A stretch of 30,353 nucleotides of DNA, taken from positions 1 through 30,353 of IMG/VR virus record IMGVR_UViG_3300033562_000027. One strand, written 5' to 3'. The position numbers were made by a program, and so were the translations under genes. The notes under the pieces are model-generated. The model saw only the letters and a program-made list of their open reading frames with translations, was not told the DNA's origin and did no database searches. Positions within the stretch are counted from its first letter, which is position 1. Each line of letters begins with the position of its first letter. This document shows positions 18,738 through 29,902 of the stretch, piece after piece. This DNA is from a virus (taxonomy: Duplodnaviria > Caudoviricetes).

Positions 18738-19415
18738 ATGGGAATGACCTTTTTAACAAATCAGCTTATCGGTGGGGCTACTAGTGGAATATCTACCGGA
18801 AATCCATCAGCCGGAACTGGATCAACAGGCGGATTCTTCTCCGCTGGTAATATGTCATCTATTGCCGGAGGTGCTGGTGCTGTAGCAAGCATGATAGGTG
18901 GTATATCATCTGCCTTTGCTGCTTATGCTCAAGCCGATAGCATCAAAAGTAATCTTCAGTTTCAGTCTGATATGGCAAAGATCAACGCTCGTATGGCTGA
19001 AAATACTGCCCAGTCAATCATGGACGCAGGCAAGTCACAGAACGCTGCCAGCACAATGAAGTATGGACAGATGGCCGCAACACAGAAAGCATCCCAGGGT
19101 GCAAGAGGCGTGGCAATGGGCGAAGGATCTGCCGCAGAAGAGATCGCTTCTACCAACATCATAAAAGAGATCGATTCCAACACCATCAATGCCAACACGG
19201 TACGGGCAGCATGGTCTGCCAGAACACAGGGAGTCAATGCCAGCAACCAGGCCGCAATGTCACAGGTAAGCGCAAGCTCCATTAATCCCATGTCGTATGC
19301 CACTAACAGCTTGATGACCTCTGCCACTGAAGTCGCTTCAAGCTGGTATAAATCAAAACGGTCAGGAACTTCCGGCGGAACTCTTGCCGATATTCTTGCA
19401 AGTATAGGGGGCTAA
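18738..19415 (+). CDS. Internal virion (ejection) protein, T7 gp14-like
   Basis: Gly/Ala/Ser-rich with coiled coil and GARGV..GEGSA. Located after the nozzle gene. Confidence 0.7.
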   Translation: MGMTFLTNQLIGGATSGISTGNPSAGTGSTGGFFSAGNMSSIAGGAGAVASMIGGISSAFAAYAQADSIKSNLQFQSDMAKINARMAENTAQSIMDAGKSQNAASTMKYGQMAATQKASQGARGVAMGEGSAAEEIASTNIIKEIDSNTINANTVRAAWSARTQGVNASNQAAMSQVSASSINPMSYATNSLMTSATEVASSWYKSKRSGTSGGTLADILASIGG

Positions 19416-19416
19416 A

Positions 19417-21198
19417 ATGCCGATGTTTGTTCCAGCAGTTGAAGCCAGCGCAGTACCTATGCAGCAGTTTCAAGCACCTGAATCAAAGAACTATGCTGCC
19501 GACTCAGCCGCTCAAGCTGGCAACATACTGATGAAGCAGGGAGAGTTTATAACGAAAGTTGTTGAAAATTATAAAAATGACGTTGCCACTGCCAAGGTCA
19601 AAGATGCTGACAATGCCATGTCGTCAGCGTTCAGTGAGATCCTGCTGCACCCAGAAACCGGATTCATGGGCAAGATGGGCAAGAATGCAGTGGATGCCCA
19701 GAAGGACACGGTAAAGGCAGTTGATGATTATGTGGCACAGGTATCGTCAAACATGGTTGACCCTGTTGAGCAGGCCATGTTCAAGAAGGCAGCAAACACC
19801 AGGGTAGCTGCCATGAAACAGCAGATACTTGGTCACACATTACAGCAGGCCAAAACATGGCGAGTGCAGTCAAGTGGCGATAGGATGATGTCTGCCGGAC
19901 AAGAAATGATAGCATCCGCAGACCCTTCAAGCGAGGCATACCAAAAGGCACTTGAGACATTCAAAAACGAATCGGCAGAGAAGTCATCCCTGCTTGGTTT
20001 AGATCCAGCCTCTGCAAAAATACATCTGCAATCAGAACTGACAAAGGTACATGCTGAATCGGTTCAGCAGTTAATCAGCAGAAATGCGCCAATAACAGCA
20101 AGGTCTTATTTGGAAGATGCCATTAAAAACGGCGAAGTCATGCCCGGTGCCGTGAATGAAATCAAGAAGCATATTGATACTTCAGTTGATCAGTACCTGG
20201 GTAAAAACACAGGTGACGCTGTATTCGACCAAAGAATGGAAGAGATTGGCGGAGACATCAACAAGGCCATACCAGAATCTGAGATGCTGTCTGATATCAA
20301 TTCAAGTAAAGAGCTATCTGACCATGCGAAAGAAATAGCATCCGCCAAGGTCATCGGCAACATCAACAGGCTGAAGGCGCAGAGGTCGCAGGATGCACAA
20401 GAGTCCAGCAACCAACTGCACAAGATAATGAATCACGATGGCAGCATGTCGGAATATTCCCAGGCACTGGGGTATATCAGCAGTCTGACAAACGTAGACG
20501 AAACAACAAAAGGCAATTTAAAAGAACATGCCATGAGGTTCTACGGCATAAGGGAAAAGCAGTCTGAAGCAAGAAGCGATGCCAGGATACAGAAGCACCT
20601 AGATTCCATAGTAAGAGCAAAGGATGAGATAGACAACTATACCAACAACAAGTACGGCAAATTGAGCTTTCAGGATGCAATCATAAAGTTTGCTCCAACT
20701 TTAGGCAGTCAGGCAGAGAATGTTGCCCGTGTGATAGAAAAGATGAACACCAAGATGGAAAACCCGAAACTGGGGTATGCTGATTTTAATCGTAAGTTGT
20801 CGGTCATGGCAGCAAACAAAGAGTTTCAGAAACAACTTGGATTTGATCCAACCAGTAAAGATGCAGATGTAATCCAGGCTAAAAACATATTGTTGGAAGC
20901 AACGCTTGACAACATGGCGGCATTCGGAGCCAAGGGCAAGCAGATCAGTTTGGATCAGGCATTGAGCATGGCATTAAAAGAAGAGACAGTCAAAAGCAAG
21001 ATCATGGGATTTATACCCTCAACGAAGAAATACAAAGCCTATATGATACAAACACTGCCAGAGTCAGAGCAACGCCAGATAGTAGAGAATAACTTGAGAA
21101 TGGCAGTCAAGCCGGTAACGCCTGGCAACATAGAAAAAGGTCTGCAAGAATTACGCAAGAAAAGATCCTCTAACAACATTACCGACAACGAGGAATAA
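19417..21198 (+). CDS. Internal virion (ejection) protein, T7 gp15-like position
   Basis: 593 aa, all-helical composition, LHPETGFMGKMGKNA motif. Located between the gp14-like gene and the giant gene. Confidence 0.65.
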   Translation: MPMFVPAVEASAVPMQQFQAPESKNYAADSAAQAGNILMKQGEFITKVVENYKNDVATAKVKDADNAMSSAFSEILLHPETGFMGKMGKNAVDAQKDTVKAVDDYVAQVSSNMVDPVEQAMFKKAANTRVAAMKQQILGHTLQQAKTWRVQSSGDRMMSAGQEMIASADPSSEAYQKALETFKNESAEKSSLLGLDPASAKIHLQSELTKVHAESVQQLISRNAPITARSYLEDAIKNGEVMPGAVNEIKKHIDTSVDQYLGKNTGDAVFDQRMEEIGGDINKAIPESEMLSDINSSKELSDHAKEIASAKVIGNINRLKAQRSQDAQESSNQLHKIMNHDGSMSEYSQALGYISSLTNVDETTKGNLKEHAMRFYGIREKQSEARSDARIQKHLDSIVRAKDEIDNYTNNKYGKLSFQDAIIKFAPTLGSQAENVARVIEKMNTKMENPKLGYADFNRKLSVMAANKEFQKQLGFDPTSKDADVIQAKNILLEATLDNMAAFGAKGKQISLDQALSMALKEETVKSKIMGFIPSTKKYKAYMIQTLPESEQRQIVENNLRMAVKPVTPGNIEKGLQELRKKRSSNNITDNEE

Positions 21199-21201
21199 TA
21201 T

Positions 21202-24200
21202 ATGAGCTTGTACGATCTGCAAGAATCTCTTGGAATGAACTCAGCCGGTAACGCGGTGGTTAATCTCTCCGATGCCTTTGGTCAGAATCCAGTTGAACAT
21301 GCTGAACGGCGTAAACTGGAAAAGCAGACAGGTACTCCGGCAACGCTGATGGATGACCCTGAAGTAATGGTAGAGGCCAAGAAACAGGCATATGTAAAGG
21401 GATTGGCTCTCAGCCATACTCCGGCCACGTCAAAGTTTGCAGAGAATCCAAACAATGCTCCGCTGATGTATGATGATATGGACAACCTCACCAGCTTTGA
21501 AGACCGTATCAAAAAGCTGCCGAAACGGTCTATGTCAACAATGGGCATTGCAGGGCCGAAGGATATAGGCACTGCACAGGCGGCATCTGACTTCCTGAAA
21601 TCCACCTCTGATTTTATGGATAAAGCTGTTATCCCTACTCCGGCCAGAGCTTATGCTGCATATCAGCAAGGCACGGGCGGTATGTATCAGTGGATAGGTG
21701 AAATGATAGGATGGGATGGGCTTGCACAGCAGGGCAAGTCTATGCACGAAGATGCAAAAGCTGTTGAAGAGTTTATTCAGAAAGACAAGCAAATAGATCC
21801 CGACTCATGGACAGGTGCAACTGCCGTAGCATTGCAGAGCATGTACCTACAAGCTCCATTGATGGCAGCAGGTTCGCTGGCAGCCACAGTAAGGGGCGCA
21901 ACATCTGTCACCCTGGGCGGCATGGGCATGACCACCGCCGGTCAGACATACGCTGACAGAAGAGAAAAAGGTTTCAGCCCTGTTGCATCTGGATGGTCTG
22001 CCGCGTTTGATGGTGCAGTCGAAGTAGGCACAGAGATCATGCCGACATCCAGAGTCTTTGAAATGTTAAAGCCAACTGCCAAGGCATCGATGGGCAAGCT
22101 GATGACATCCGTTGCCAAATTGTACGGCGAGGAAATGGTGGGAGAATCCATCGCCACGTTCATGCAAGATGCCAATAATCGCTTTATGGGTAATCCTGGC
22201 CAGACTGCCGCGCAGAGAGTTGATGCCATCGGAGAGTATGTGCAATCTGGTGAGGCACTGACAAATTGGCTTAACACTATCAAGACAACTTTTATTCAAA
22301 CATCGCTTATGGCCGGTAGCGCATCTGGAATCAACCGAATCAGATCCTTTGGAAAAGATAGTGTGGCCGGCAGAACTCAACAGCAGGCTGAGCATACTGC
22401 CCAACTGGTTGAAGCAATCATAGCCGCAGAAGGTTCACGGCTCTTGACCAACTCGCCGGAGACATTCACCGAGTTTGCCCAGAGGGTTGGCGAAGAGCAT
22501 GGGCATGATAAGATTTACTTCCAGGCCGACAAGCTGATCAATGAGGCAGTCAATCAAGGTATACCTAAAGCACAGATCCCAGAGTGGTTATCCCAGTACG
22601 GAGTTGATCCGGTACAGCTTGCCACTGATTTGAAGACCGGCGGCACTATTGCCATCGATTTCGGCAGTGCAGTTGCCAACTTCAAAAATGATGGAGTCCT
22701 GCAAGCCCTTCAGAGTGAGTTTCTGGTTTCTCCTGATATGCACGGCTTGGCAGACGCAGAAAAAGGCATACAGATAGAATCAGCTCACCTAGAGCGACTT
22801 AACGATATTTATGCCGCAGATCAGGCCAAAAAGGTCGATGCAGCCGATGTTGAGGCATGGAAACAGGAAATACTAGGCAGGCCGGAGCTTGGCAAGTACA
22901 TCAAGGAGGAACATCTGGACAGCATGGCGGCAAGAGCGAATGCCCTTTCCAAGATGACCGGCATGCCTGCCATTGATTTCGTCAACGAGATGCTGCTGCC
23001 ATACAATATCAAGACAATGCGGTTTAAGGATTTTCAGAAACAGCGTCAAGAAAATGCCGGTATGGATGTCGGTGTTCTTAACGCAATCCGCACTGGCAAC
23101 GGTATCCCTACAGAGTCGCAGGCATACGGGCCGAGTTTGATTGACTTCTTGCGCGACAAGGGCGGGATTAAAGACCAAGGCGGAGAATTGGCAGCAATGG
23201 ATGCACATGCTGCCACAAAGCAGGCATTCAAGAAAAACTTTGTAAATGAATCCGGCATGAACCAGGACACGGCGCGGGAGTTGGCTGTTGAAGCTGGTTA
23301 TCTGAACGCTGATGCGACCATTGCAGACTTACTGGATATGATAGGGGCGGAACTGTCTGGCACTCCGAAGTATTCCGCCAACAACAGAAATGATGCCGTT
23401 GCCAACAAGCTGGAAAAGATCAACGAAACTCGCGCCATGTTTGAGCAGTTCGGTGTTGATCCAACTGGTGACATTGACGAGATACTGCAAAAGCTGTCCG
23501 ACATGCATACCGAGCAGGATGATCTGCCGTTTCAGGCTGATGAAAAAACGGGATTGGTTCAGCGTCCAGATGAAACACTGGAGCAGTTTGTTGATCGGCG
23601 CAACAGTACGCTGCGTGACAAGCTGGTTGCTGAGATGACACCGGAAGAAAAAGACCATGCTCTACTACTAAACGAATTGACGCATATTCCAAACCGTCGG
23701 GCATACCATGAAGACGAGGCAAAAAATGGTGGCCCGATGAAAATCCAGGTTTCTGTTGATGCGGATTCGCTGAAGTTTGTAAACGACAACATGGGGCATC
23801 ATGCTGGCGATAACATGCTTATTGCTATTGCCGAGGCATTGCATAAATCATCCCTTGAGTTAAGCAGTCGTGGGTTTGATGTTAGGGTGTATCATGTTTC
23901 AGGTGATGAGTTTATCGTCCAGAGCGACAACGAAAAGGCCGTGGCATTTATATTAAACTCTGTTGACAAGATACTGGCAGGGAGTATAATTAAATCAGAT
24001 CAGGTCGAAGGGTATTTTGTAGAAACAATCCCCCATATTACCTATGGAGTAGACAACAATGGCAACCTCAAAAGAGCAGATAAGCAACTCCAAGAATCAA
24101 AACGAATTGCCACAGATAGAGGAGTTCGTGCAGAGCGTGGTGAGCCGCCTTACACCACAAAGGTCGTGGACAGATCCGATGACGGGAAGAACTACGACTA

Positions 24201-27200
24201 TAACGATATCAAATCCTTATTCAAAAAATTAGAAGAAGAACGCAAAAAAGCCCGAGAAGAAGCTGCAAAAAAAGGCACAGATCCCGCTGACGTTAATCAC
24301 CCTGACAATGTAGCTGCTAGGTTCGCAAAGCTACTACAGGGCAATCCCCTCTTTCAATCCGCTTGGCACGGCACTCCCCACACATTCGATAAGTCACTTG
24401 CATCTGACGGGATAGGGGATTCCCCTCTTGTCAAGGGCTTTACGAATAGAATGGTATCCGATGCTCAGGTGCTCACTGATTTTGTTAATACTCCACCCTT
24501 TATTGAGAAGGGTCTTGACGGCTTCGATATCCCAACGCAAAACGCGCAACTCAGCAGAGTGGCCAGGCTTATCGAGAACGACAAGATTAGAAAGCTCGTT
24601 GTTGAGTCTATTCCGGTCGATATGATGAACATGCTCATTGAGAAGGAGCTTTCTGCCGATATGCTGCTCCATGATGTGACGGTGTTCAGGGACTTGTTTA
24701 CCCTCGACCGTGATAATTTTGTATCCCTTCCCGTTGATATGACCAGTCGCCTTGTGGATATCGTAGCATTTACGGGAACAAAAGAGCTTCTCTCTTCCCT
24801 TTATGTTGGCAAGGGGGCGGGAAAACTCAACACTGCAAAACTCACACTTAAAAGCTGGCATGATAAATTACCTCCTGATTTTTCAAGCATTATATCAGAA
24901 ACAACAGGGATTACAACTAATAGTATTTTCTCTGATGATGATGTGGCAATTACGGCGATGTACCAATCACAGCAGAACAACTACCTGGCCGCACTTACCC
25001 AAGATGCCGATGGCAACAATGTCGTAAACCTGTTCGCCGCCGCAGACAAATCCTCATTCCTCCATGAAGCAGGGCATATCTTCCTTAACCACCTGAAACT
25101 GGTGGCCGAGAAACACAACCTCCAAACAGCAGAATGGCAGGCCGCAAAAGAATGGTTGGGCATTGGCGATGATGGCATTATCACCCGTGAACAGCATGAA
25201 CAGTTTGCCGAGCATTGGGAAGTATACCTGATGGAAGGTAAATCACCGACTCCTGAACTGCGTGGGGCATTCCGTTCGTTTAAGCGGTGGCTGACTGCCA
25301 TATATGAAAACGTCAAGTCAGGTCGGTTCGGGCAACGTGATGGCATAGTCATCACTCCCGAAATAAAAGATCTGTTTGACCGTTTGCTGGCAACTGAGGA
25401 AGAGATCCAAGAGGCCAAAGACGAAGCTGCCCTGATTGCCATGCTTGATGACAAGATGCTGAACGGCACTGGTTTCTCTGCTGAAGAGATTGCTGCGTAT
25501 CAGAAGATAGTCATGCAGGCAGAAGACTCTGCCCGGGAGCGGATGGACAAGCACAAGATGATCGGCAGGGAAGAGCGTCTGGCCGGATGGAAGGAGCAAG
25601 CCGAGCGTGATGCCCGTGGTGTGCCGGTCTATGCTTTCCAAGAGTGGATGTCAGACATCGGCATTGATCCGAAGTCGGCGGCACAATATGGCGAAGTGCC
25701 AAGCAGGACGGTATTCAAGGCAGAAGGCGAAGACATTAACGTGGCAATTGCCGAACATGGCAGTCAGTTCGGGTATGAGAATGCAACTGACTTCATGCAT
25801 GATGTTAGGACGTACCCTATCCGCCAGCAGTGGATGGAAAAGAGAGTGGCACAGCTTGAAGCCGCTTATGATTTGGCACAGGATACTCAAGAGGCAATCC
25901 GCACTACATCACTCCGCCGTCAACTTGAGCTGGAATCCAACTGGCTGGAGCGCAAAATAAAGCAAAAGCGCATGAGTGAAGAACGGGCGCAGCAAAAGGC
26001 CGAGGCTGTTGATGCTGCCAAACAAGCCGCATACGAGCAGAGATGGGCGCAGGCTGAAGAGGACATGCTCTGGAAGATGGATCAGGCCAAGGCAACCACC
26101 CCGAAAGAAGTAATGAAAGAATGGGCCGAGCGCACGGTTGCAAGTCGCACCATGACAAAGATCCGCAGCATCTCAAAGCTGGTGGCAGAATCCGCCAAGC
26201 ATCGCAAGGAATCAATAGCCGCTGCCCGTGCCGGTGATTGGGAAACCGCTCTACAAAAGAACGAGCAAGCCCGCATGACCGAAGCATTAATCACGGCCAG
26301 TTATGCCGCTGCAAATAAGTTCAAGCAGATGCAGTCACGTTTGGCGAAGATCGCCAAGTGGACAAACGACAACAAGAGCGTGAAGGTCGGTGAAAACTTC
26401 CGTGATCAGATTAACCGGCTGATGCAGCAGTATGCCATTGCCAATAAAGAGTTTAATCCGAACATACCCAGTGTGCAGGACTTCGCCGCTAACCTTATTG
26501 ATGGTGAGGATGATATCGGGGCGGTGCTGCCGGAGTGGATAGGCATTGATCCCACTGACCAAAAGAACCTGACATGGCATGAATTGCAAGAACTGCATGA
26601 TGCCCTGAACTATCTGTATAAGCACGGCAGGGATGAAGTGGAAGGCAAGAAACTGGCAAACGGTCAGTATGTGTCTGCCTATGCCAGCGATATCTTGATG
26701 GCCCAGGGCGATATCAAGGGTATGCCCAACCTGAAATCAGATGCTACCAAATTCGGCAAGCTCTGGCAGGGAGTGCAGAAGGGTTACCGCAAGTTCTTTG
26801 CTAATACCGGCATCCTGCGGTTCATCGCCCAGCGGATGGACGGATACAAGAACATCGGCAAGAACGGCCAGATGGGGCCAGCAGAGCAACTGGTGCAGAA
26901 TGTTATCAATGGAATGGCGGCATCAAATGACCTCTGGATTAAAGTGTCTGCCGAGATTGAACCGCAACTTGCAGTGCTGTTTAAGAACCGCAACCAACAA
27001 CATGATGACCTGCCGTGGCCTTCAAAGCTGACCAATGCTGGCAAGTCGTGGACACATGAGCGGGTTGTGGTTGCTGCTCTTAACATGGGCAACGAGTCCA
27101 ACCTCCAACGGTTGATGGACGGTTATGGCTTAACTGAAAACCATATCCGCTTAATTCAATCCAAGCTGACTGCCGAAGAGTGGCGGGCAGTGCAGAGCAT

Positions 27201-28782
27201 CTGGAACACGATCAACTCACTCTGGCCGCAGGTCGCTGACACCCATGAGCGGCTGAAGTATTACCGGCCAAAGAAGATTGAAGCACAGGGCTTTAGCGTT
27301 ACCACTGCAGACGGGCAACAGTTATTCCTTGATGGTGGTTACTACCCTGCCGCGTATGACAAAGAACTGGATAACGATGCTGCACGTTGGGGTGAAAAGG
27401 AAGATCTGCTTGCATCCCATGAAGCTGTGATGCAAGTGCCTATCGCAAAGTCAGGCTTTGCCAAGAGCAGGGCAGACAGGGTGAACCGTCCAATAGACTT
27501 GTCACTTAATAACCTGTCCGTGCATTTTACCGACATCATCAAATTCATTACACTGGCAGAAGTAACCCGTGATGCGGATAGGGTATTTCAGGACAGAGAG
27601 CTTGTAAACCGCAACATGGAAACCATCGGCCAGGATATGCACAATGCTATTCGTCCGGCACTGCAAAACGTACTGCGTCCAGAAAGACGATTAGCGGGTG
27701 GCTTGCTTGAGCGTGGCCGAGTGGCAATGTCAACCTTCTATATGGGATATAATGCATGGACTGCCATCCAGAACGTGACCGGAGTATTCCCTGCTATTCG
27801 TCAAGTCGGATTCAACAACTACCTTGACGGAATTGCACAGACAATCAGCAATCCATTGAAGTCCCATAAAGCTATGTTGCAGATGTCTGGATATATGCGG
27901 CTGCGTGAAACAAACATTGAACGCGAATTAAAGGGTCAAATCAGCGACTTCAAAATCGGCGGCATGGAGATTAACGGCAAACGCTACACGTTCAAAGATG
28001 TGCAGTCACTGGCATTCGCCGGTATCAGGCTGATTGACAGCATAGTAGCCCTGCCCGCATGGTATGGTCGCTATAACTCGGAGATGGAAAAGCATGGCGA
28101 TATGCAGCGGGCTGTTGAATCTGCCGACTCTTCAATAAACAAGGCTCTGGGGTCTGGTCTGGCAATAGACTCCACCGGCACCGGGCGGCATCAGATCTGG
28201 TCACTGTTCGCCCCGTTCATGTCCTTTGCCTCAACTCAGCAGGAAGTGCTTACAACCGAAAGGCAGGCATGGAAGGAAGGCAAGATAAGCACCAGCGAAT
28301 TTCTTTATGGACACCTTATGACCTGGCTGGCTCCGGCCATTATGTCAACATTCCTTCAGGGTGCGTTGATGTACGGACTCATGGGGGCAATCGGTGGTGG
28401 TGATGACGACAAGCGCGAGAAAGGTGGCATGGATTATCTGACAGACATTTTGTCTTACCGGATGATGGGCATACCCTATCTGAGAGATATCTTTAACGGT
28501 GTCATTCAAGGTGTTGAAAAGAAAGCACCGATAACATCGGCGAGAATGCCAATAGCAGAAGCATTCAGGATGGCACAGCAGTTGGGCTATCGCATGGGCA
28601 ATATGGATGGATCAGAGAAAACTGTAAAGGCCGCGATGTGGTCGGCAGCAGAACTGACATCACTTTACTTGCATATCCCTGCTACCAGAATTTTTGAGCG
28701 GTGGCAGAAGGGAACAAAAAACATCGAATCCGGTCATGGATGGTGGGGTAATCACTTCATCCCGCAGGAAAAGAAAAAGTAG
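21202..28782 (+). CDS. Giant internal virion/ejection polyvalent protein with GGDEF, ART-like remnant and HExxH peptidase modules
   Basis: 2526 aa, in the last ejection-protein slot before the tail fibre. SGDEF at aa 900-904, AWHGTPHTFDK at aa 1054, FLHEAGH at ~aa 1288. Confidence 0.85.
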   Translation: MSLYDLQESLGMNSAGNAVVNLSDAFGQNPVEHAERRKLEKQTGTPATLMDDPEVMVEAKKQAYVKGLALSHTPATSKFAENPNNAPLMYDDMDNLTSFEDRIKKLPKRSMSTMGIAGPKDIGTAQAASDFLKSTSDFMDKAVIPTPARAYAAYQQGTGGMYQWIGEMIGWDGLAQQGKSMHEDAKAVEEFIQKDKQIDPDSWTGATAVALQSMYLQAPLMAAGSLAATVRGATSVTLGGMGMTTAGQTYADRREKGFSPVASGWSAAFDGAVEVGTEIMPTSRVFEMLKPTAKASMGKLMTSVAKLYGEEMVGESIATFMQDANNRFMGNPGQTAAQRVDAIGEYVQSGEALTNWLNTIKTTFIQTSLMAGSASGINRIRSFGKDSVAGRTQQQAEHTAQLVEAIIAAEGSRLLTNSPETFTEFAQRVGEEHGHDKIYFQADKLINEAVNQGIPKAQIPEWLSQYGVDPVQLATDLKTGGTIAIDFGSAVANFKNDGVLQALQSEFLVSPDMHGLADAEKGIQIESAHLERLNDIYAADQAKKVDAADVEAWKQEILGRPELGKYIKEEHLDSMAARANALSKMTGMPAIDFVNEMLLPYNIKTMRFKDFQKQRQENAGMDVGVLNAIRTGNGIPTESQAYGPSLIDFLRDKGGIKDQGGELAAMDAHAATKQAFKKNFVNESGMNQDTARELAVEAGYLNADATIADLLDMIGAELSGTPKYSANNRNDAVANKLEKINETRAMFEQFGVDPTGDIDEILQKLSDMHTEQDDLPFQADEKTGLVQRPDETLEQFVDRRNSTLRDKLVAEMTPEEKDHALLLNELTHIPNRRAYHEDEAKNGGPMKIQVSVDADSLKFVNDNMGHHAGDNMLIAIAEALHKSSLELSSRGFDVRVYHVSGDEFIVQSDNEKAVAFILNSVDKILAGSIIKSDQVEGYFVETIPHITYGVDNNGNLKRADKQLQESKRIATDRGVRAERGEPPYTTKVVDRSDDGKNYDYNDIKSLFKKLEEERKKAREEAAKKGTDPADVNHPDNVAARFAKLLQGNPLFQSAWHGTPHTFDKSLASDGIGDSPLVKGFTNRMVSDAQVLTDFVNTPPFIEKGLDGFDIPTQNAQLSRVARLIENDKIRKLVVESIPVDMMNMLIEKELSADMLLHDVTVFRDLFTLDRDNFVSLPVDMTSRLVDIVAFTGTKELLSSLYVGKGAGKLNTAKLTLKSWHDKLPPDFSSIISETTGITTNSIFSDDDVAITAMYQSQQNNYLAALTQDADGNNVVNLFAAADKSSFLHEAGHIFLNHLKLVAEKHNLQTAEWQAAKEWLGIGDDGIITREQHEQFAEHWEVYLMEGKSPTPELRGAFRSFKRWLTAIYENVKSGRFGQRDGIVITPEIKDLFDRLLATEEEIQEAKDEAALIAMLDDKMLNGTGFSAEEIAAYQKIVMQAEDSARERMDKHKMIGREERLAGWKEQAERDARGVPVYAFQEWMSDIGIDPKSAAQYGEVPSRTVFKAEGEDINVAIAEHGSQFGYENATDFMHDVRTYPIRQQWMEKRVAQLEAAYDLAQDTQEAIRTTSLRRQLELESNWLERKIKQKRMSEERAQQKAEAVDAAKQAAYEQRWAQAEEDMLWKMDQAKATTPKEVMKEWAERTVASRTMTKIRSISKLVAESAKHRKESIAAARAGDWETALQKNEQARMTEALITASYAAANKFKQMQSRLAKIAKWTNDNKSVKVGENFRDQINRLMQQYAIANKEFNPNIPSVQDFAANLIDGEDDIGAVLPEWIGIDPTDQKNLTWHELQELHDALNYLYKHGRDEVEGKKLANGQYVSAYASDILMAQGDIKGMPNLKSDATKFGKLWQGVQKGYRKFFANTGILRFIAQRMDGYKNIGKNGQMGPAEQLVQNVINGMAASNDLWIKVSAEIEPQLAVLFKNRNQQHDDLPWPSKLTNAGKSWTHERVVVAALNMGNESNLQRLMDGYGLTENHIRLIQSKLTAEEWRAVQSIWNTINSLWPQVADTHERLKYYRPKKIEAQGFSVTTADGQQLFLDGGYYPAAYDKELDNDAARWGEKEDLLASHEAVMQVPIAKSGFAKSRADRVNRPIDLSLNNLSVHFTDIIKFITLAEVTRDADRVFQDRELVNRNMETIGQDMHNAIRPALQNVLRPERRLAGGLLERGRVAMSTFYMGYNAWTAIQNVTGVFPAIRQVGFNNYLDGIAQTISNPLKSHKAMLQMSGYMRLRETNIERELKGQISDFKIGGMEINGKRYTFKDVQSLAFAGIRLIDSIVALPAWYGRYNSEMEKHGDMQRAVESADSSINKALGSGLAIDSTGTGRHQIWSLFAPFMSFASTQQEVLTTERQAWKEGKISTSEFLYGHLMTWLAPAIMSTFLQGALMYGLMGAIGGGDDDKREKGGMDYLTDILSYRMMGIPYLRDIFNGVIQGVEKKAPITSARMPIAEAFRMAQQLGYRMGNMDGSEKTVKAAMWSAAELTSLYLHIPATRIFERWQKGTKNIESGHGWWGNHFIPQEKKK
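23668..24110 (+). other. GGDEF (diguanylate cyclase-like) domain within the giant protein
   Basis: NELTHIPNRR, DADSLKFVNDNMGHHAGDNML, HVSGDEF (SGDEF at 23899-23913) and LKRADKQLQESKR match the GGDEF blocks DxLTxLxNRR, DxDxFKxxNDxxGHxxGD, RxGGDEF and RADxALYxAK. Confidence 0.88.
23963..23990 (+). promoter_or_regulatory. Consensus sigma70 promoter inside the GGDEF coding sequence
   Basis: TTGACA (23963-23968), 16-nt spacer, TATAAT (23985-23990). Both hexamers are perfect. Confidence 0.75.
24059..24232 (+). CDS. Overprinted 57-aa ORF in the +1 frame of the giant gene
   Basis: Below the ORF-track cut-off. GGAG at 24046-24049, 9 nt before the ATG, ~70 nt downstream of the perfect promoter. Translates to MATSKEQISNSKNQNELPQIEEFVQSVVSRLTPQRSWTDPMTGRTTTITISNPYSKN. 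Confidence 0.5.
   Translation: MATSKEQISNSKNQNELPQIEEFVQSVVSRLTPQRSWTDPMTGRTTTITISNPYSKN
24394..24861 (-). CDS. Nested antisense HNH homing-type endonuclease (Zn finger + HNH + HTH)
   Basis: CEFC...FCSRKC zinc finger, EHRHIMEQHIGRKL..NEHVHHIDRNRLNNELSNL HNH motif and C-terminal GWSINKISEHLSIGYHSIRKAL HTH. RBS AGGAGGT lies 8 nt upstream. Confidence 0.9.
   Translation of the reverse strand: MPAFKCEFCSVEFSRPLANIKGREKLFCSRKCYDIHKATGHINGKGYKIITVEGKQVPEHRHIMEQHIGRKLLLNEHVHHIDRNRLNNELSNLVVLDKPGHSAELRVLRWDIEAVKTLLNKGWSINKISEHLSIGYHSIRKALDKRGIPYPVRCK
24870..24916 (-). promoter_or_regulatory. Promoter and RBS of the antisense HNH gene
   Basis: On the minus strand: TTGTAA (24916-24911), 16-nt spacer ending in TGA, TATAAT (24894-24889), i.e. 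an extended -10. AGGAGGT at 24876-24870. Confidence 0.8.
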
Positions 28783-28814
28783 CGCACATACGGCAACACA
28801 TAGGCTTTAAGATG
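28781..28814 (+). promoter_or_regulatory. Putative late promoter copy 3: AGCGCACATAC-N16-TAAGATG
   Basis: Exact 11-mer overlapping the giant gene's TAG stop, with the same spacing. A separate GGGGGTG RBS precedes the ATG at 28832. Confidence 0.7.
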
Positions 28815-28831
28815 CGTAATGGGGGTGTGCC

Positions 28832-29902
28832 ATGACGATATCCAGTCAGACCAGAATAGCGGGGCCATTTACTGGCAACGGAATTACCACGACATTTCCG
28901 TTTGCCTTCAAGGTCTTCTCTGTTGATGAAGTAGATGTAGTCGTTGGAACAGACGGTGTCGAATCAACACCCACCATCAACAGCGACTATACAGTAACGC
29001 TCAACGCTGACCAGAATACAAACCCTGGCGGGTCAATAAATACGACAACTCCGCTTGCAGTGAGTAGCGTCCTTGTTATCACTTCCAGCGTTGAACTGCT
29101 GCAACCTGTTGACCTCACCAACCAAGGCGGTTTTTATCCCTCTGTAATTAACGATGAGTTTGACCGGCTGACTATTATCACTCAACAACTGCAAGAGCAA
29201 CTTGGCAGATCTTTGCAGGTAAGTCTAACATCTGGTGTAATTCCCACTGATTATCTTGGCGAATGCGAACTGTCCGCTTCTAATGCCGCTGCAAGTGCCG
29301 CCGATGCTGCCGCCGCTGAACTGGCTGCTGAAGCTGCTGCAAGTGTACTGTCTGACGGGGACAAAGGCGACATAACCGTATCCGGTAGTGGTGCAACGTG
29401 GACTATTGATAATGCCGCAGTAACCTACGCAAAACTTGCAACTGATGTTTATGACAGGGTTGTGCAGCGAGTTGAGGCGACGCCTTATACTTCAGTCGCA
29501 ACTGTCTCATCTACTTTCCCTGTTGATGACACTATTCCACAGAATGACGAAGGTTACGAGTTGATGACTGTCACAATCACACCAAAATCTTCAACTAATA
29601 GGCTAATTATATCTTTTGATACTGCACTATCGAAATTAGCCACAGGGAATATAATTATTGCTTTGTTTCAAGATTCAAACGCCAATGCTATTGCGTCCAG
29701 CTTAACATCTAATGAAGATGGATATGCGTCTAGAGATGGAATAGTACATGAAATGGCCGCTGGCACAACAAGTGCAACCACTTACAAAATTAGAGTTGGT
29801 GTGGGAGCAGGTAGTCTTACAATAAACGGTATAGCAACTAATAACCGATATTTGGGCGGTAGTATGGCAGCTAGATTGTCTGTGACGGAGGTACGAGCAT
29901 GA
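28832..29902 (+). CDS. Tail fibre protein (T7 gp17-type N-terminal attachment domain)
   Basis: MTISSQTRIAGPFTGNGITTTFPFAFKVF...QPVDLTNQGGFYP..IND.FDRLTI, then an Ala-rich linker, DGDKGDITVSGSG and a C-terminal ITPKSSTNRLII beta-sandwich. Confidence 0.85.
   Translation: MTISSQTRIAGPFTGNGITTTFPFAFKVFSVDEVDVVVGTDGVESTPTINSDYTVTLNADQNTNPGGSINTTTPLAVSSVLVITSSVELLQPVDLTNQGGFYPSVINDEFDRLTIITQQLQEQLGRSLQVSLTSGVIPTDYLGECELSASNAAASAADAAAAELAAEAAASVLSDGDKGDITVSGSGATWTIDNAAVTYAKLATDVYDRVVQRVEATPYTSVATVSSTFPVDDTIPQNDEGYELMTVTITPKSSTNRLIISFDTALSKLATGNIIIALFQDSNANAIASSLTSNEDGYASRDGIVHEMAAGTTSATTYKIRVGVGAGSLTINGIATNNRYLGGSMAARLSVTEVRA

Follow-up and report, generated by a model that had tools for sequence, protein, structure and literature searches.

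How does an intact endonuclease gene persist on the reverse strand of a giant phage gene whose own reading frame stays open through all of it? The question is raised by the viral record IMGVR_UViG_3300033562_000027, analyzed over its whole length of 30,353 nucleotides (hereafter the window). The window is one contig from a podovirus-type phage, and it encodes a portal, a major capsid protein, a tail nozzle, and a tail fibre. A minus-strand ORF at 24394-24861 lies wholly within the open 2526-aa ORF at 21202-28782 on the plus strand, antisense to it and in a shared codon register. The nuclease cassette includes the following elements:

24394..24861, minus strand: HNH endonuclease gene, 155 aa (ORF list, Pfam, PHROG, AlphaFold)
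24870..24876, minus strand: ribosome-binding site (RBS) AGGAGGT, 8 nt 5' of the ATG (sequence)
24889..24916, minus strand: sigma-70-type promoter TTGTAA-16-(TG)TATAAT with an extended -10, predicted from sequence, its boxes kept in the related locus L001

The layout proposed by the first-pass annotation, a minus-strand HNH gene with promoter and RBS in an open plus-strand frame, was thus borne out by the ORFs, the Pfam match, the promoter, and the RBS, and the codon-for-codon alignment of the two frames was confirmed. The ORF matched Pfam HNH_3 (E 1.7e-8, 34.4 bits, cut-off 24.8), the profile match on which that annotation had staked its reading, as well as 12 PHROG HNH families. The predicted protein includes a Cys4 zinc finger (C6, C9, C28, C32), an HNH core (H79, H80, N88, N92, H101), and a helix-turn-helix-like C-terminus. 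The five core residues were invariant across 17 embedded HNH sequences, and together with the profile score above cut-off they mark the product as a putative HNH endonuclease. Residue 105 is a leucine in the window and in L001, and a histidine in 28 of 31 relatives. The AlphaFold model of the 155-aa protein reached a pLDDT of 87.7, and its top Foldseek match was I-HmuI (PDB 1u3e), a weak one (E 0.04, prob 0.94). The two share the HNH_3 core, whereas the window HNH has an N-terminal zinc finger and no intron, and its activity is putative. The -35 box, the 16-nt spacing, and the TGnTATAAT element were also found 5' of the L001 HNH gene, where the spacer sequence has diverged.

The first-pass annotation had also put the chance of such a stop-free frame at about 6e-4. 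This figure did not stand: given how this phage uses its codons, the chance rises to about 0.004, and the host gene has a further antisense-open stretch of 152 codons at another place. The feature is considered real because of its HNH homology and its recurrence, not because of the open frame alone. The insert was spanned by one assembled contig without joints, which possibly came from the window's own source run. No joined form was seen among contigs aligned to the region; contigs cannot show absence. A weak terminator-like hairpin at 24049-24031 on the minus strand, about 345 nt past the HNH stop, was at chance level (two found, 2.0 expected).

The host gene and its features around the cassette are as follows:

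21202..28782, plus strand: host gene, a 2526-aa polyvalent protein with 0 cysteines (Pfam, PHROG; ejection role from gene order)
24361..24393, plus strand: N-terminal remnant of an ART-like module, host residues 1054-1064, forming the left cassette junction (relatives)
24925..24966, plus strand: C-terminal remnant of the same ART-like module, host residues 1242-1255, forming the right cassette junction (relatives)
25063..25077, plus strand: HExxH motif of a metallopeptidase-like module adjoining the 3' side of the cassette (sequence)

Pfam identified an LPD22 domain (residues 26-104) and a GGDEF domain (residues 825-969) in the host protein, and its neighbours carry tail, internal virion, and tail-fibre annotations. 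A large, multi-module protein that combines LPD and effector domains among virion genes agrees with the polyvalent type. Three genes in a row between those for the tail nozzle and the tail fibre encode no cysteine; the host gene is the last and largest of them, and the 11 other window genes tested encode 1-13 cysteines each. The gene order suggests that the host is likely an ejection protein, and the ejection proteins of podoviruses are described as required for infectivity (PMC8954989). The metallopeptidase-like (MPTase) label was assigned from the HExxH motif and the description in PMC5512222, with no Pfam match.

Two further sites in the window were recorded. The plus-strand stretch 23963-24232 holds a perfect TTGACA-16-TATAAT promoter (0.013 expected per simulated window), located within the GGDEF region, and then GGAG and a +1-frame ORF of 57 codons (24059-24232); the promoter points towards the HNH gene. 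The site may represent another hidden gene or give rise to antisense RNA; searches for homologues of the ORF were negative, and the ESM Atlas returned no usable match. A promoter-like site matching 11 of 12 positions (19595-19568, minus strand) lies within a 593-aa cysteine-free gene, with a 121-aa minus-strand ORF at 18962-19327 downstream.

Comparison with same-family relatives indicated what the cassette displaced. The left remnant motif runs on into a full module in five relatives (P0166, P0162, P0159, P0161, and P0168), and the C-terminal remnant also occurs 3' of the cassette in L001/P0002, P0008, and P0009, with a degenerate form in P0003. Because the two motifs that bracket the cassette are the two ends of a single module of 236-331 aa in these five relatives, the cassette replaced the core of that module. 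The module is termed ART-like after a sub-threshold Pfam match, in which the homologous full module of L013 scored 29.4 bits against ART-PolyVal (PF18760; cut-off 31.2, E 1.5e-6) and that of L014 matched weakly. The insert was carried by six of 120 host-family proteins, at the slot used in the window or at a neighbouring one. Both occupied and empty versions of the slot thus exist, the patchy distribution typical of homing, and all empty alleles found were distant ones. Of the insert-free alleles sought since the first-pass annotation, five with the full module came to light; no near-identical empty allele was found, the nearest host relatives being about 50-60% identical. Scans of viral sequences with the host downstream flank and with the GGDEF region retrieved no relatives, so no close empty allele was available at the DNA level.

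The arrangement recurs in more than 100 unrelated giant phage proteins, a point on which the first-pass annotation had only posed the question. In total, the antisense embedded layout was found in 44 DNA loci and in 137 giant proteins, at many sites. An initial search covering 12 loci identified it in L001, where the nuclease is 70-72% identical and the giant gene is a different one, and in L003 (38%). With a host-frame peptide profile, 828 cluster representatives were retrieved, of which 288 reached E<=1e-10. Among the 154 matches listed, 133 were at least 1000 aa long and at least five proteins carried two copies. A Pfam scan of 18 matched proteins identified polyvalent-protein families in 12, peptidase M23 in one, and none in five. 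Searches with the window's host-frame peptide among cultured phages and with that of L001 among plasmids gave no match.

Because a host-frame profile can find only open frames, a search from the nuclease side was added. It yielded 202 distinct HNHs, 45 of which passed the embedded filter. One of these, L128, passed automatically with flanks that are not a giant gene, and its removal left 44; it is included in all 31-locus counts given here, and excluded from the proline count. The pool of free HNHs includes same-strand methylase-type inserts. Seventeen of the 44 top scorers were the training set of the profile and three came from the host-side search; of the other 24, 23 were embedded alike. 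On the nuclease strand, extended -10 matches were found 5' of 14 of 33 embedded HNHs (0.9 expected) and RBS-like matches 5' of 16 of 33 (3.2 expected).

Insertion sites varied, and included positions in or beside ART-like modules, before or in peptidase-like modules, beside InPase-like modules, and in linkers; the module names are presumptive, assigned by motif. Related nucleases had one site type in common. In a first tree, 14 of 17 embedded nucleases grouped together (support 83), and a single origin was considered. A larger tree did not keep this grouping, so a single origin is not claimed. The larger tree required 15 label changes, against 31 for shuffled labels, and is compatible with one origin or several. 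Copies were also observed in metagenome bins labelled Smithella, Janthinobacterium, and Saccharibacteria (L110, L111, and L112, respectively), labels that may not denote the true hosts. The copy in L216 is embedded in a shorter host of 640 codons with five cysteines, and this is the only embedded locus with GCA or ACA codons.

Selection was examined in both frames, as the first-pass annotation had proposed. The nuclease frame is under purifying selection, with a dN/dS of about 0.2: values were 0.21-0.23 between the window and L001, and lay in the range 0.10-0.35 for the 11 embedded pairs whose dS could be measured. The host frame gave 0.65-1.1. Such estimates are confounded in overlapping frames, and those of the host frame are affected by the overlap as well. 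The catalytic state can also be read from the giant proteins themselves, because, opposite the His and Asn codons of the nuclease, the host frame must read Val/Met or Val/Ile. On this basis, intact H79, H80, N88, N92, and H101 fit all 142 copies in the 137 giant proteins, and no copy that kept the domain had lost the catalytic pattern, with the profile favouring intact copies. A free-standing nuclease at L204:4860-5519 is 62% identical to the embedded nuclease of L202; its proline codon is absent and its antisense frame closed, and it could either have escaped from an embedded position or resemble the ancestor.

In the host frame, the cassette encodes a passenger with the following features:

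24424..24867, plus strand: passenger domain, host residues ~1075-1222, a predicted helical bundle with no cysteine (AlphaFold)
24613..24615, plus strand: host Pro1138, opposite HNH Arg83, near-invariant, its varying base silent for the nuclease, between two predicted helices

In the shared register, host codons that start with T correspond to nuclease codons that end in A. The stop-reading codons TTA, CTA, and TCA made up 258 of the 812 Leu/Ser codons in free genes and none of the 234 in embedded genes, where they are absent by definition. The choice of loci did not demand the absence of cysteine, unlike that of stops. The cysteine-reading codons GCA and ACA were nevertheless missing from all 302 Ala/Thr codons of the first 17 embedded loci, and accounted for one of 493 in the 31 loci found from the nuclease side, against 138 of 594 in 69 GC-matched controls. 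A blanket base bias is not indicated, because Tyr-, Trp-, and Phe-reading codons were reduced in embedded genes and Ser-reading codons were not. One cysteine was counted among 26,454 insert residues and 98 among 314,400 residues of the hosts; the same-strand HNH inserts of seven methylase-like genes kept 13. Only retention explains a cysteine exclusion that matches that of the hosts, so translation of the giant gene likely runs on through the cassette, with the passenger kept in the protein.

The host frame is also under sequence-specific selection. The silent third base of nuclease residue 83 was G, giving the host proline, in 30 of 30 embedded loci and in seven of 69 controls. Since the bases flanking this codon vary freely, selection on protein rather than on nucleic acid is indicated. 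Host-frame identity exceeded a synonymous-resampling null with a z of 10.6 over 26 non-redundant loci (0.9 in controls), and the difference at silent sites was 0.385 for eight embedded pairs versus 0.514 for 10 free pairs (p 9e-4). AlphaFold modelled the passenger as a helical bundle, with pLDDT of 85-95 for model residues 31-120 and of 88-93 for residues 131-150. Fold searches with the passenger returned generic helical bundles (best Z 6.8) and no specific known fold, a sequence search of solved structures gave a match limited to the C-terminal helical part, and the ESM Atlas had no usable match. The predicted fold may be partly a by-product, because the amphipathic helix pattern did not exceed that read from the antisense strand of free HNHs (hydrophobic-moment test, p 0.6). 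Taken with the codon data, the models suggest that the reverse strand of the nuclease gene now encodes a domain that is under selection and probably folded, and that the passenger is likely a tolerated folded spacer. Of the tolerated passenger proposed by the first-pass annotation, the likely retention in the host protein was upheld, with the amendment that the peptide is not inert, given the sequence-specific selection and the predicted fold.

The reading that we consider probable is that of a selfish homing cassette that does not undergo splicing, comprising an intact HNH gene with its own promoter, antisense and in register within a giant gene, with the host protein likely carrying a folded spacer from the reverse strand. 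The promoter of the cassette would drive production of the nuclease without any need for expression of the giant gene, and the enzyme would cut target modules free of the cassette in co-infecting phages. Repair via the short conserved module ends would then copy the cassette in, and sub-lineages would keep to one module type with a jump now and then. This register may have been favoured as TTA, CTA, TCA, GCA, and ACA are all third-position choices silent for the nuclease, and because they are silent, host stops and cysteines could be purged at no cost to its protein. A sense fusion would instead bring the zinc-finger cysteines into a cysteine-free protein. Selection would hold the spacer compact and free of cysteine, so that the giant protein keeps working.

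Alternatively, the cassette may be a domesticated dual gene, from which the phage benefits through attack on co-infecting rivals or through a job of the host-frame product in the ejected protein. The sequence-specific conservation of the host frame, the confident fold model, the near absence of decayed copies, and the proteins with two copies (at least five) are all in line with it. Selection is, however, far stronger on the nuclease frame than on the host frame, the insert is present in so few host-family proteins, and no copy retains the domain with its catalytic pattern lost. Domestication is accordingly judged unlikely as the main account, and it is compatible with homing rather than exclusive of it.

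The nuclease might also be active without homing, with the cassette moving only by the ordinary shuffling of polyvalent modules. The many different insertion sites agree with this, as do close relatives that differ at the left junction with the right remnant travelling along. The window and L001 encode nucleases 70% identical in giant genes whose 400-aa flanks have no BLASTP match; this mobility agrees with homing as well as with shuffling, and the unrelated flanks are no proof of nuclease-driven homing, because polyvalent genes shuffle modules anyway. Two observations make mere shuffling a poor candidate: related nucleases hold to one module type in otherwise unrelated genes, and the nuclease gene has not decayed as a mere hitchhiker would be expected to.

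Removal of the insert after translation, either by the neighbouring metallopeptidase-like module or by an unknown splicing reaction, was a further candidate; the cysteine exclusion of the insert, however, is the same as in retained protein. The insert often adjoins an HExxH module, and processing of polyproteins by such peptidases is proposed in PMC5512222. Some copies, however, lie within ART-like or peptidase modules (L023, L123, L031, and L201). The passenger matched no Pfam family at E<=1, hence no intein or LPD family, conserved end residues of the intein type were not found at the ends of the insert, and its model is all-helical, with no Hint splicing domain found. An intein with an antisense endonuclease is thus not indicated by either domain or end residues, and excision at the protein level is regarded as very improbable.

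Introns often carry homing HNHs of the I-HmuI type, and a self-splicing intron with an antisense endonuclease gene is nonetheless scarcely credible here, as no ribozyme core or structured non-coding RNA of a group I or II intron was recognized (three weak Rfam matches over 21000-29000, none to an intron family and none inside the insert; folding z -0.17), the cassette beyond the ORF is about 60 nt of promoter and RBS entirely, and host frames free of stops and cysteines in 44 loci would be needless. An inversion or transposon was also considered and gained no support, as no terminal repeats or target duplication stood out. Read-through without splicing agrees with every test run. The splicing-free parasitism put forward by the first-pass annotation therefore stands as far as read-through is concerned; its picture of a simple addition gives way to replacement of an ART-like core.

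Hidden HNHs that are read through are already known from the ShiLan domain, in which HNH inserts are hidden in actinophage DNA methylases (Arsenault, Gosselin, Gogarten 2025, PMC11855218). As far as described there, a zinc-finger HNH is likewise nested in an open host gene with no intron or intein found, the insert is thought to be retained in the host protein, and homing is inferred. The window shares this nesting of an HNH ORF in another frame of an uninterrupted host, with no splicing element found, and the nucleases are related, with about 35-40% identity in the core. It departs from ShiLan in strand, frame, host gene, and RBS. The ShiLan ORF shares the strand of its host and is read in frame 3, as was confirmed here, and it is reported to have no detectable RBS, whereas the window HNH is antisense, in register, and has its own predicted promoter and RBS. 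The ShiLan host is presented as a non-essential methylase of about ten phages, with a low-confidence prediction for the in-frame product. In contrast, the antisense HNHs occupy giant cysteine-free virion-type proteins at many sites in more than 130 clusters, with the host frame measurably selected.

Endonuclease ORFs of the LAGLIDADG or VSR-like type have also been described on the antisense strand of inteins (Gosselin et al., bioRxiv 10.1101/2025.01.02.630785). Such inteins similarly place a homing-type endonuclease antisense in a translated host frame; their passenger is reportedly removed by protein splicing, whereas in the window no splicing domain was found and the nuclease is an HNH. The host gene is of the type described for polyvalent phage proteins, with LPD, ART, GGDEF, and peptidase modules among virion genes (Iyer et al. 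2017, PMC5512222), an article whose main text, as available, does not use the word "antisense". OAFI (bioRxiv 10.1101/2024.11.07.622342) is presented as an engineered, synthetic alternate-frame insertion, to which the cassette appears as a natural antisense counterpart. A literature search, with most subscription journals and supplements outside its coverage, retrieved no account of HNH genes lying antisense within genes for polyvalent or ejection proteins. What appears new, judged from that search, is the breadth of the antisense form and its selection in two frames.

Seven same-strand HNH inserts in the +1 frame (L185, L065, L153, L005, L178, L154, and L190) were observed in uncultured phages, at one apparent site in genes that we take, by motif, to be DNA-methylase-like; they are ShiLan-like. 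In the cultured cyanophage Cr-LKS3 (OM373202.1, 39565-39876), a DNA methylase is annotated over an HNH match, possibly another hidden HNH.

Alongside introns and inteins, the cassette would represent a third route by which a selfish nuclease gene can persist within a likely essential gene, on a scale far beyond the methylase case of 2025. As gene callers give the giant gene alone, embedded nucleases are likely missed in annotation, and the cysteine test offers a simple indicator of a nested insert that stays in an ejected protein. With more than 100 diverged copies and free-standing relatives as controls, the family is a natural experiment on the origin of a protein domain from an antisense frame, in which the signature of selection is measurable at sites silent for the older gene. 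In its widest form, for which we regard the case as evenly balanced, these cassettes would be a widespread, unannotated class of homing elements, neither intron nor intein, with a nuclease encoded by one strand and a newly evolved domain, folded and devoid of cysteine, by the other. That domain would let the cassette enter in frame at many sites in essential ejection proteins and pass through the tail, and hundreds of "unknown" segments of giant proteins would be copies of it.
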